64,000 bases of DNA from Harriotta raleighana (GCA_050575255.1 JBNZDD010013686.1:4797186-4861185), one strand, 5' to 3'. Positions 39,365 through 63,082 are shown, numbered from the stretch's first letter. The notes: generated from the letters alone by a model not told the origin. Translations and numbers: made by a program.

Positions 39365-39535
39365 CTACCGGGGCAGCTGAACATTGGCTAAGTCTGAGAT
39401 GCTGCTGGCTCGGTTTTGTGCGTGACGGGCTTGATGTTGTGAGAGGTACCCCATAGTACTGTGTTGTGGTGAAGGAGGTGGAAGGAAAAGAGACTGTGCC
39501 TGGCTTCCTTGCATGGCTCCACTTGGTGGCACTTG
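39365..39535 (-). CDS. PASD1: coding exon 20 (last)
   Basis: Strong pyrimidine tract + tttag| [17 protein letters not shown]...[15 protein letters not shown] at 39367-39365. Confidence 0.75.
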   Translation of the reverse strand, partial: QVPPSGAMQGSQAQSLFLPPPSPQHSTMGYLSQHQARHAQNRASSISDLANVQLPR

Positions 39536-42500
39536 CTAAACAGAGAAATAAAAAGCAAGTTATAAAATGTGAATCCATTTGAGTTTTATCTTCCCAAGGA
39601 CAACTGTGTTTGCTGGATATCCCACTCCCATCAGAGCAGCTAAAGTTAGCAGTTTATGTTACAAATTCATTAAAAAAAGTAAACATTTTACTGGTTGGCT
39701 CCGATTTTTACGTTGTAATCCAACTTTAATAAAATCAGTTTACTTTGCTAAATTCCCCCAAATGCCATGCACTATTTCAGATGGTTATTTGCTTTTCGTA
39801 TAATTTCAGTCCTTTAAAAGATAATCAATTCTTATAATGTGTAATTGGGTGGGGCTGGTTAAAATCTGCAGTTAAATTTATAGAAATGCCTGTCCAAATG
39901 GAGGTACTGGTTCAGTGTTGAGTTCACTGTAGCCAGTGTCTTTATAACTATTTTGTGATCGAGTATTTGATTTGCACTTCCACAATAAAACATTCACTCA
40001 ATGTTCTGATGTTGTTTGTGCTCAATAGCAGTCATTTAGAAATCATTCCTCAGCAAATTGGTATTTTGTGCTAAGCATCATACTTCACTGATCTCCAGAT
40101 TGCCATTTCGTAGTCAATTAGAGAACAGGAGACTCCAGCTCTTGTAATTAGATACCTACTTACTGTTAATAACTGACAGCAAGTAGTTTTAAGGAGCATT
40201 TAAGTATTCCTTTAAAAACATCTTGCTGCATTCAGTCATTGGTTACATTATTAACAATATCACCTTCTCTTCAGCACTGATACACAGAAGACAGAAAGTG
40301 CAAGATGATATAGAATTTACCCTAACATTTTCCATCCTTCACTTATCTAACCTGCACTGAACAGATGATGAATTGAGTTGCAAGCGAAGTCGCTGCTACG
40401 AGTTCCCTTCAAGCTGCGATACTACTTTTGCCAGGATTGTCAGCGCTGGGCGCAGTGATTCCAAGTAAGATGTATTGTCTTGATGTACGATGGAACTGAG
40501 ACTGTTACCTGAAGGTAATGATGCTGTTGTTGAAGCTGCATGGAATGCTGGGGATGCTGCTGTTGGATGGAGGACTGCTGGTGTGCAGAGAAGCCTTGAT
40601 GTGGCATCGTCACAGAATCCGGAGAAGGTACAATGACTGCGCTACAGCTTATCGGTTGCATTGTTAATGCTGTCAGCATCTGTTGATCCTGAATATATCT
40701 GAAAATACAGGTTCCGCAAATAGCACCACATAAATTTGCCTAACGACATGCGGCACTTACAATTAAATAGATGCGGAAGTAATGTTTTACCTAATCGGTC
40801 TAATCTGATCGAGTGTTCTACAAAAGGTCTGGTCAACGATCATCTGCGGGTGATAGATTATTTCCAGACTGATGAGTGAAGAAGAAAAATAGATGAAAAG
40901 GTGCTGGAATTGTGCCACACCTGAGACTGTGGGCAAAGTGGGGAGATGTGTGGGGGTGGGATGGGTGGTGTGGGGGGGGGGGGGGGGGANNNNNNNNNNN
41001 NNNNNNNNNNNNNNNNNNNNNNNNNNNNNNNNNNNNNNNNNNNNNNNNNNNNNNNNNNNNNNNNNNNNNNNNNNNNNNNNNNNNNNNNNNNNNNNNNNNN
41101 NNNNNNNNNNNNNNNNNNNNNNNNNNNNNNNNNNNNNNNNNNNNNNNNNNNNNNNNNNNNNNNNNNNNNNNNNNNNNNNNNNNNNNNNNNNNNNNNNNNN
41201 NNNNNNNNNNNNNNNNNNNNNNNNNNNNNNNNNNNNNNNNNNNNNNNNNNNNNNNNNNNNNNNNNNNNNNNNNNNNNNNNNNNNNNNNNNNNNNNNNNNN
41301 NNNNNNNNNNNNNNNNNNNNNNNNNNNNNNNNNNNNNNNNNNNNNNNNNNNNNNNNNNNNNNNNNNNNNNNNNNNNNNTTTTTTTTTACATTCTCAATGT
41401 TAGAGCTGTCAAATGTAATACTGTAATAAGTATACTTTTGCCCATTTACAGTTGCTAAATAGTATCCATGAGTGTGAGGAACGAGCCCTGGTTGATTGTC
41501 TTAGTAATTTTGTTGTTGTTGGTTTCCAACAAGCCCACGATTGCTCAGTTCATTTACTGCCATCTCAGTTGCTGCTCCAGTTGTGATCACCAACCTTGGG
41601 CACAGACCAGATCTTGGTCTGTATGGTCTAGTTTCACACTGGACAGTGACTACTGATTGAGTCACACAAGTATTCTAAATGGTGGTGGCCACAACATAGG
41701 AGAGAGAAAATGGTGTTTCCTTCCCCAATATTCGCTATCGTTTGAAGTCCCTTGATCCAACATACATCACCCTTCAGATGCAATGTTGAGATAATGTTTT
41801 CTTTATATCAATTTTTCTGTCAGTCAGAGATCATCATTCGACTCACTTACCTCGGGGCAATGCATTTCCAGTGATATCTCACCTTTTTCAAGGCATGGAC
41901 TACTTATATTTCAGTCCGACAACAAATGTCAAACATGAGTATTCTTAAAGCCAGTCACAGCAAAGCAAGATATATCGACTGGAATACCTTTTGATTCAAT
42001 GTGCATCACACTTCAGGTAATACAGTAATAATAATAATCCTTGCATTTATTAATATAGTGCTTTTAACACATCTTTAAGACGTCTCAAAGCGCTTTCACA
42101 GAATAGACTGTGAAGTGAATCGACTATATTTTGTGAGGCAAGGTAGAAAGGCAGGCAGATCTCTTGTACAGCCCAAGATCAATGCGCAGGGATACATACT
42201 TGGCTTGTTGTCTTGCTGAGTTGTTCTGGAATGGTTGCTCATTTCCACTGTTAATTGGCATTATGGAATGGATGGGTTGATTGAGAAATAATCTGAAGGA
42301 AATAACTCGTATTAATACTGCTTGTGAACAATATCTTCACTTTGCTTATGTAGCTGTTTAATAAACATACAAAAAATAATAGACAGCAGTGAAGAAAAGG
42401 ACTGGACCTCATTTGACGTCACATATAAAACATTATTATTCACAGCTTGTTTGTTGACAGTCGTCGTTCCGAGATGTATCTAGGAGTGCTGACTATTGCC

Positions 42501-62524: not shown

Positions 62525-63082
62525 CAGCTCGCCTACACAGCTGGTGTCTCTGTGAAATATGAAAGAACGAAATAGTAAATTACACCTTCAGGTAAACCAA
62601 CAGTATTGCACAATTAGTCGGCAGTGATTCTCCCATCACTTAGGTACTAATAAGGGTCAGACATATTGCTTTGGATGGAAGATTTATCGGTAGGATATAA
62701 TCACATTCTTCATTCATTTTGTGGTGGAATGTGAGACATTACTGTATGCAAATTGGCTGCAGCGGTTGCCTCCATACAAATACACAATCACTACACTCCT
62801 CAATAAAAATCTTGTGAAACACTTTGAGGCGTTTTGATGACATGATAAGGTACTATGATAAGGCCAAATGTATTAAGGATTATGAATATAATAATATGAC
62901 ATTCACAATATCAATAATAATATTACAAATAATAGTGTACTACTGTACCAATAATAATATTAATAATAATAATTTGAGTGTGCTGGAGAACAATCTAATC
63001 TTATGTCACTTGTTTGGATATGACAGAAAATTACTTGGTATTGATTAGTTTACATTTGGTTCCGGAGAGGCACAGTTATTGT

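Follow-up and report, generated by a model that had tools for sequence, protein, structure and literature searches.

We analysed 64,000 nucleotides of the genome of the chimaera Harriotta raleighana (GCA_050575255.1, JBNZDD010013686.1:4797186-4861185; hereafter the window, with positions counted from its first letter). A basic helix-loop-helix (bHLH)-PAS gene of the PASD1 lineage lies on the minus strand at 39365..62549, with 20 coding exons and a product of 844 amino acids from a methionine at 62524. Very probably the gene is a PASD1 orthologue that has stayed intact in chimaeras, one of three CLOCK-family genes of jawed vertebrates together with CLOCK and NPAS2, and it would still serve as a positive factor of the clock.

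Reading the exons from the sequence gave a spliced coding sequence of 2535 nt from the ATG at 62524 to the TAG at 39365, that is 844 codons and a stop with 0 internal stops. Introns have an AG acceptor in 19/19 cases, a GT donor in 18 and a GC donor in 1 (after exon 51647-51529). The first coding exon within the window (62493..62549, with an AG acceptor preceding 62549) is followed on the minus strand by the bHLH exon, whose basic region is intact (61008..61156), by linker and PAS-A exons spanning 51529..59883 (59883-59792, 58962-58873, 55123-55003, 52311-52198 and 51647-51529) and by PAS-B exons spanning 47408..50211 (50211-50129, 48965-48859, 47874-47727 and 47492-47408). Downstream on the same strand are Ser/Thr-rich linker exons spanning 44766..47114 (47114-46973, 46320-46214 and 44858-44766), a coiled-coil exon (44270..44428) with homology to both exon 19 of CLOCK and the CC1 of PASD1, and Gln-rich C-terminal exons (44023-43784, 43083-42884, 42292-42200, 40698-40509 and 39535-39365, the last with the stop). 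An optional minus-strand exon of 78 nt (26 amino acids; 40791..40868, with AG/GT flanks) matches isoform X1 of Callorhinchus milii at 96% identity and is missing from C. milii isoform X2; it is nearly unchanged relative to C. milii despite the fast-changing C-terminus and was not in the shark and ray models seen. At the other end, the 8 in-frame codons 5' of the ATG encode exactly the residues that the 2021 C. milii models have at 15-22, and no match to the first 14 residues of these models was found in 62550-64000. The N-terminus is probably longer than the 844-residue model, with an initial exon that would lie beyond the window. We also looked for an E-box in 62550-64000, which is probably intron, and found none there.

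The assembly holds two further, incomplete copies of the bHLH exon in tandem on the minus strand (60639..60960), one at 60960-60810 (96% identity over 150 nt) and one at 60808-60639 (100% over 170 nt), with a single N beside each. A contig from sequencing run X1, which may itself be the source of the window, joins 60962 directly to 60638 and skips the copies, and three raw-read runs (overall depth about 1-2x) have zero or near-zero depth at 60711-61013. Because the X1 contig bypasses them and read depth is almost nil there, we read the copies as most likely assembly artefacts; we also weighed a genuine tandem duplication of this exon and, given the same contig and depth, judged it unlikely. 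A gap of 389 Ns (40990-41378) falls within an intron. All six motifs quoted in a sequence-only reading of the window were found on the minus strand where it had placed them, and its description of the gene as uninterrupted stands for the reading frame, open over 20 exons, but not for the assembly, which has the bHLH-exon copies with their Ns and the 389-N gap. Further single-N junctions with short tandem duplicates occur at 45434 (about 45540-45350) and 10379 (about 10290-10460); they resemble the false bHLH copies in pattern and are probably artefactual too. The GC splice donor (51528-51527, minus strand) follows the last PAS-A exon, and the coelacanth NPAS2 model carries an insertion at the same junction. 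Sequences resembling tRNA-Val stand on the plus strand at 59467-59538 and 63085-63156; since the first adjoins a stretch of approximately 10,000-fold read depth (59600-59800), we read them as probably the heads of a tRNA-derived short interspersed element and not as tRNA genes.

In searches with single exons, Pfam matches above cut-off were obtained for HLH (E-value 4e-11) and PAS_11/PAS_3, and the PAS-A exon matched PAS below cut-off. The coiled-coil exon matched the CLOCK exon-19 helix of PDB 5VJI (E-value 2.5e-11), and glutamine makes up 22% of residues 548-844. These matches, together with the open 844-residue frame, bear out the earlier claim of an intact gene with a bHLH, PAS-A, PAS-B, coiled-coil and Q-rich layout. 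The protein has the make-up of a class I (CLOCK-type) bHLH-PAS factor, namely bHLH, PAS-A and PAS-B in an open frame, an exon-19-like coil and a Q-rich C-terminus, and does not have the hallmark of the placental repressor, the loss of bHLH and PAS-B, both of which are intact here. In CLOCK numbering it keeps R39, N40, E43, R46, R47, L57 and L74 in the basic region and bHLH, and W284, G332, H360, Q361, W362 and E367 in PAS-B; we take R39, E43 and R47 to be E-box contacts and L57, L74, W284, Q361 and W362 to be dimer or CRY-loop residues. The DNA-contact and dimer sites of mammalian CLOCK are kept. The alignment of the C. milii orthologue with the bHLH-PAS-A-PAS-B part of mouse CLOCK is gap-free (E-value 2e-200; mammalian CLOCK, PDB 8OSJ, 4F3L, 4H10 and 5VJI). 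H119, C170, H171 and H335, presumably the heme ligands proposed for NPAS2, are all present, yet they are largely common to the whole family and so are not diagnostic of NPAS2. The coiled coil carries a glutamate (in QLEERT) typical of the PASD1 lineage, found in 14/14 cartilaginous-fish, 54/54 tetrapod or coelacanth and 28 of 31 scorable placental members, whereas the same site is glutamine in 116/120 NPAS2 proteins among the matches listed and in 8/9 shark CLOCK proteins; at this diagnostic residue CLOCK and NPAS2, which form separate paralogue clades, differ from the chimaera protein.

A first tree (tree A; 50 rows, 413 columns, JTT+G4, support values read by split) contained a CLOCK clade (99.9/100), an NPAS2 clade (99.9/100) with bichir, sturgeon, coelacanth and tetrapods, and a third clade (100/100) uniting the chimaera protein with 5 cartilaginous fish, bowfin, 4 teleost proteins named npas2 and 9 PASD1-type proteins from coelacanth to marsupial. 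Because coelacanth, Spea, Pelobates fuscus, Chelonoidis and Patagioenas each contribute one gene to the NPAS2 clade and another to the third, the two clades are paralogues. Tree B (27 rows) added 6 placental PASD1 proteins including that of human, with unalignable columns masked (PAS-B in the 6 placental rows, the N-terminus in 3 of them and the coiled coil in Antechinus), and nested the placental proteins within the third clade (98.2/99) in species-tree order. Approximately unbiased (AU) tests rejected 6/6 alternatives tried, among them the chimaera protein and catshark with NPAS2 (p=0.0006) or with CLOCK (p<1e-100), teleosts and bowfin with NPAS2 (p=4e-7), and placental PASD1 with NPAS2 (p=0.003) or with CLOCK (p=0.0008).

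For comparisons by BLAST and by profile, protein lists were picked by source names, excluding unnamed Logan, JGI and ENA rows and counting 3 unnamed MetaClust rows among the 66 placental-type PASD1 proteins. All 66/66 matched a panel member of the PASD1 lineage best, and 65/66 preferred the chimaera protein over bichir or coelacanth NPAS2 and shark CLOCK. The non-placental matches of anteater PASD1 were of the PASD1 lineage in 54/54 cases among the matches listed, and zebrafish Npas2 (NP_840084.1) reached 1406 bits with the profile of the PASD1 lineage, compared with 960 and 973. Placement of the chimaera gene in the PASD1 orthology group is strongly supported, and the npas2- or clock2-labelled genes of sharks, rays, bowfin and teleosts probably belong to the same lineage, fish 'npas2' being then a misnomer. 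The sequence-only reading had set the gene in the PASD1 lineage, apart from tetrapod NPAS2 and CLOCK, and the clades (100/100 and 98.2/99) and AU tests agree; grouping with tetrapod NPAS2 in a maximum-likelihood comparison, which it had named as the contrary outcome, is the arrangement rejected at p=0.0006. Its term 'ancestor' of mammalian PASD1 has to be replaced, as the gene is an orthologue that keeps the ancestral layout. Hagfish and lamprey have at least 2 CLOCK-family genes each (P0251, P0296, P0391 and P0317), one with a divergent basic region, and a partial protein labelled Lampetra planeri (P0022) has a teleost-type bHLH with a loop insert, likely through contamination or mislabelling.

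The closest relative is the direct orthologue in C. milii (XP_007891228.1 and XP_042196729/30; 90.3% and 92.7% identity), which has the same exons, the same optional 26-residue exon and an identical bHLH exon, and differs by substitutions throughout and in the length of its polyglutamine (longer polyglutamine). Identity to sharks and rays is 67-80%. In RefSeq, the C. milii gene was first 'PAS domain-containing protein 1' (2014 series, XP_007891228.1) and subsequently became 'neuronal PAS domain-containing protein 2' (XP_042196729/30), UniProt A0A4W3ITW8 is likewise labelled NPAS2, and relatives in sharks, rays and teleosts are mostly labelled NPAS2 or NPAS2-like and in some cases CLOCK-like; the suspicion that pipelines would label the gene NPAS2 was correct for C. 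milii and for many shark and teleost members. Full-length relatives from birds, reptiles, frogs, coelacanth and marsupials are mostly labelled PASD1. The orthology is already implicit in databases, RefSeq naming full-length bird, reptile, frog, coelacanth and C. milii members PASD1, and the chimaera gene adds one member to a lineage whose tetrapod genes carry the PASD1 name there. The proteins called 'circadian clock protein PASD1' (coelacanth, frogs, reptiles, birds and Antechinus) and zebrafish and other teleost Npas2 (Clock2) share both its clade and its bHLH-PAS-A-PAS-B-coiled coil-Q-rich layout. The model of the marsupial Antechinus retains an intact bHLH and the two PAS domains, sits on a long, fast-evolving branch and, unlike the chimaera protein, shows no coiled coil.

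Human PASD1 nests in the same clade and has PAS-A and an exon-19-like coiled coil in common with the chimaera protein, but it is a fast-evolving repressor without bHLH and PAS-B, whereas the chimaera protein keeps all activator modules. The human gene (Xq28, a cancer/testis antigen) was reportedly described by Michael et al. in 2015 as encoding a repressor of CLOCK:BMAL1. Among the marsupial and placental proteins from which these observations were drawn (P0253, P0379, P0395, P0403 and P0417), placental PASD1 has a decayed or absent basic region, lacks an alignable PAS-B and keeps PAS-A and the coil; across placental models, 36/66 still have a decayed bHLH containing the two-residue loop insert seen in bony-vertebrate members. 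Decayed bHLH remnants are kept in the anteater, rhino, camel, dog, mouse lemur and gibbon models, and the human model is without one. Decay of the basic region and loss of PAS-B, with PAS-A and the coil retained, would have turned an activator into the known repressor in placentals. The steps may have run as follows: evolution sped up in therians, the basic region decayed, PAS-B was lost while PAS-A and the coil stayed, and some lineages such as human finally lost the bHLH remnant.

Next to the gene, in convergent orientation, lies its one neighbour within the window, a TBC1D8-family gene (10011..34649, plus strand) encoding two GRAM domains and a Rab-GAP TBC domain. A search of the protein atlas with the last exon of this neighbour returned only unnamed, low-recognition matches, none naming TBC1D8B or TBC1D8. 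The 4.7 kb between the two genes (34650..39364, no strand assigned) is intergenic or 3' untranslated sequence without RPL31; in a tblastn search of the whole window with the RPL31 part of NPAS2 fusion models, the best E-value was 0.75. We take the human gene order to be NPAS2-RPL31-TBC1D8, and NPAS2 models of bichir and paddlefish continue into RPL31 (PF01198 in P0040 and P0121). The absence of an RPL31 match in the window is consistent with a region paralogous rather than orthologous to NPAS2-RPL31-TBC1D8. In paddlefish and bichir, NPAS2 models have been joined to RPL31 or to a gene upstream (P0040, P0121 and P0020), evident mis-annotations that reveal gene order. In positions 1-10000, 5' of the TBC1D8-family gene, we recognised no protein-coding exon; this part is mostly repeats, with LINE-like (long interspersed element) fragments near 6200-7600.

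The simplest inference for the chimaera protein, and in our judgement a likely one, is that of a BMAL-dependent E-box activator. It would dimerise with BMAL through bHLH, PAS-A and PAS-B, bind E-boxes through its unchanged basic region, activate Per and Cry genes by means of its exon-19-like coil and Gln-rich tail, and be repressed by CRY through the PAS-B loop (Q361/W362). It may have originated when early vertebrate genomes were duplicated. The tree B branches that lead from chimaera to birds measure no more than 0.01-0.08, which argues for strong constraint on the basic region and PAS-B. Indirect support comes from zebrafish, whose Npas2 falls in this lineage and whose three CLK proteins all activate an E-box reporter (PMC1233578).

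Several points weigh against this picture of an activator orthologous to PASD1. The constrained trees of the AU tests were obtained by fast searching (5000 replicates), and the branching order of CLOCK, NPAS2 and the third clade has support of 17.8/67 in tree A. The two-residue insert in the bHLH loop occurs in bony-vertebrate members of the PASD1 lineage, and the chimaera and shark proteins are without it. The neighbour at 10011-34649 is presumably TBC1D8B, going by its terminal motifs. Placental PASD1 forms a very long branch, with a stem of 0.69-1.15 substitutions per site; a tree from PAS-A columns alone (tree C; 171 columns, LG+G4, no masking) had the same topology, with zebrafish Npas2 inside, and gave the clade with placental PASD1 a lower support of 89.2/66. 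In a sharply weighted profile test, the 66 placental proteins went to the PASD1 lineage in 38 cases, to CLOCK in 22 and to NPAS2 in 6, with nearly all margins small. A search of sequencing runs listed no RNA data set with the sequence, a result that carries no information on expression. The putative activator role of the chimaera gene rests on sequence comparison and on residue roles taken from the CLOCK literature, and the CLK number that corresponds to npas2 in PMC1233578 was derived from PMC3161366 (Clock3 on chromosome 1), not by sequence.

Of the alternatives, the one that survives best, though we think it unlikely, is that the gene is a PASD1 orthologue already acting as a weak activator, a competitor or a tissue-restricted (for example gonadal) repressor despite its intact domains. 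CLOCK PAS-A position F122 is leucine in the chimaera protein, and human PASD1 is described as blocking CLOCK:BMAL1 through its coiled-coil part, the same coil as in the chimaera protein (review PMC6406328), and full-length penguin PASD1 is treated as a repressor, by name only (PMC13111634). Against such a role, the constraint implied by the short chimaera-bird branches falls on the very two modules that the repressor has lost, the basic region and PAS-B; the zebrafish CLK proteins all act as activators in the reporter assay of PMC1233578; and no clear loss is reported for perciform npas2 (PMC13557501).

We give still less weight, and regard it as very unlikely, to a true third CLOCK paralogue whose clade placental PASD1 joined by long-branch attraction without being orthologous. 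The long placental stem, the support from PAS-A alone and the 38/66 of the profile test are in its favour, as is the weak sister link between placental and marsupial PASD1 (67.2/70, tree B). Attraction, however, would favour long outgroups and not the short bird and turtle branches, and the loop insert in 36/66 decayed bHLH remnants, the coiled-coil glutamate, the 66/66 best panel matches and the AU tests all point to orthology. That the chimaera gene is simply the NPAS2 orthologue, as the RefSeq and UniProt labels (XP_042196729/30 and A0A4W3ITW8) say, we find scarcely credible: it has a convergent TBC1D8-family neighbour as at NPAS2, its C-terminal half aligns with NPAS2 (about 55% overall) and no other NPAS2-type protein from a cartilaginous fish was among the matches listed, but the clades are separate (100/100 and 99.9/100; AU p 0.0006), five species have both genes, RPL31 was not found in the window and the earlier RefSeq name was PASD1.

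Among the matches listed, in protein lists biased towards the query, the 24 family proteins from cartilaginous fish comprised 15 of the PASD1 lineage, 9 CLOCK and 0 NPAS2, and the 63 named for bowfin or teleosts comprised 62 of the PASD1 lineage, 1 CLOCK and 0 NPAS2, while bichir, sturgeon and paddlefish proteins were NPAS2 in 8/8 cases; none of the best 120 matches of bichir NPAS2 was named for a shark, gar, bowfin or teleost. These counts suggest that NPAS2 may have been lost in sharks and neopterygians. With NPAS2-type proteins at 0/24 in cartilaginous fish among those matches, it is doubtful that the gene is an extra, third clock component in this animal, as the sequence-only reading had it. 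That reading had also proposed absence of a separate NPAS2 locus as grounds for refutation, which is invalid as a test, because NPAS2 loss would leave PASD1 orthology unchanged.

More broadly, we lean towards a reciprocal sorting of three CLOCK-type activators. Cartilaginous fish, bowfin and teleosts would have lost NPAS2 and kept the PASD1-lineage gene, so that every teleost or shark 'npas2/clock2' would be a PASD1 orthologue; the clocks of birds, reptiles and amphibians would depend in part on a third activator that has been overlooked; and placentals would have made of it, stepwise, a repressor. This wider reading (fish npas2 as PASD1, reciprocal losses and a stepwise change from activator to repressor) was not found in the open-access literature searched. 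In earlier work, a 2004 study gave zebrafish Npas2 as the closest relative of human PASD1 (PMC2364759), a chicken 'NPAS2b' is listed in PMC2862960, and a salamander PASD1 with bHLH, PAS-A and PAS-B was reported and then set aside (PMC13663383). Elsewhere fish clock2/npas2 is treated as NPAS2, and the heme- and carbon monoxide-sensing properties of the mammalian protein are carried over to it (PMC6723592, which puts gar clock2 on LG7, PMC8674837 and PMC13557501). PMC3161366 and PMC10468136 gave nothing decisive on this point, and PMC9456351 only cites Michael et al. 2015. A statement that fish npas2 is the PASD1 orthologue was not found in open-access text, a coverage outside which subscription papers and bioRxiv supplements fall, and the ohnologue tables of PMC8040251 (1 supplementary file) had 0 occurrences of PASD1, NPAS2, TBC1D8B and CLOCK.

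The chimaera gene is the earliest-branching anchor of the PASD1 lineage, which it dates to before the split of sharks and bony fish. The probable naming error has practical effects, in that properties of mammalian NPAS2 are assigned to fish genes and full-length bird PASD1 is called a repressor. If the wider reading is true, zebrafish npas2 would be a ready model for ancestral PASD1, non-mammalian tetrapods would have a candidate third activator, and the series from chimaera through bird, marsupial and anteater or rhino to human would allow a direct test of how an activator gave rise to a repressor.

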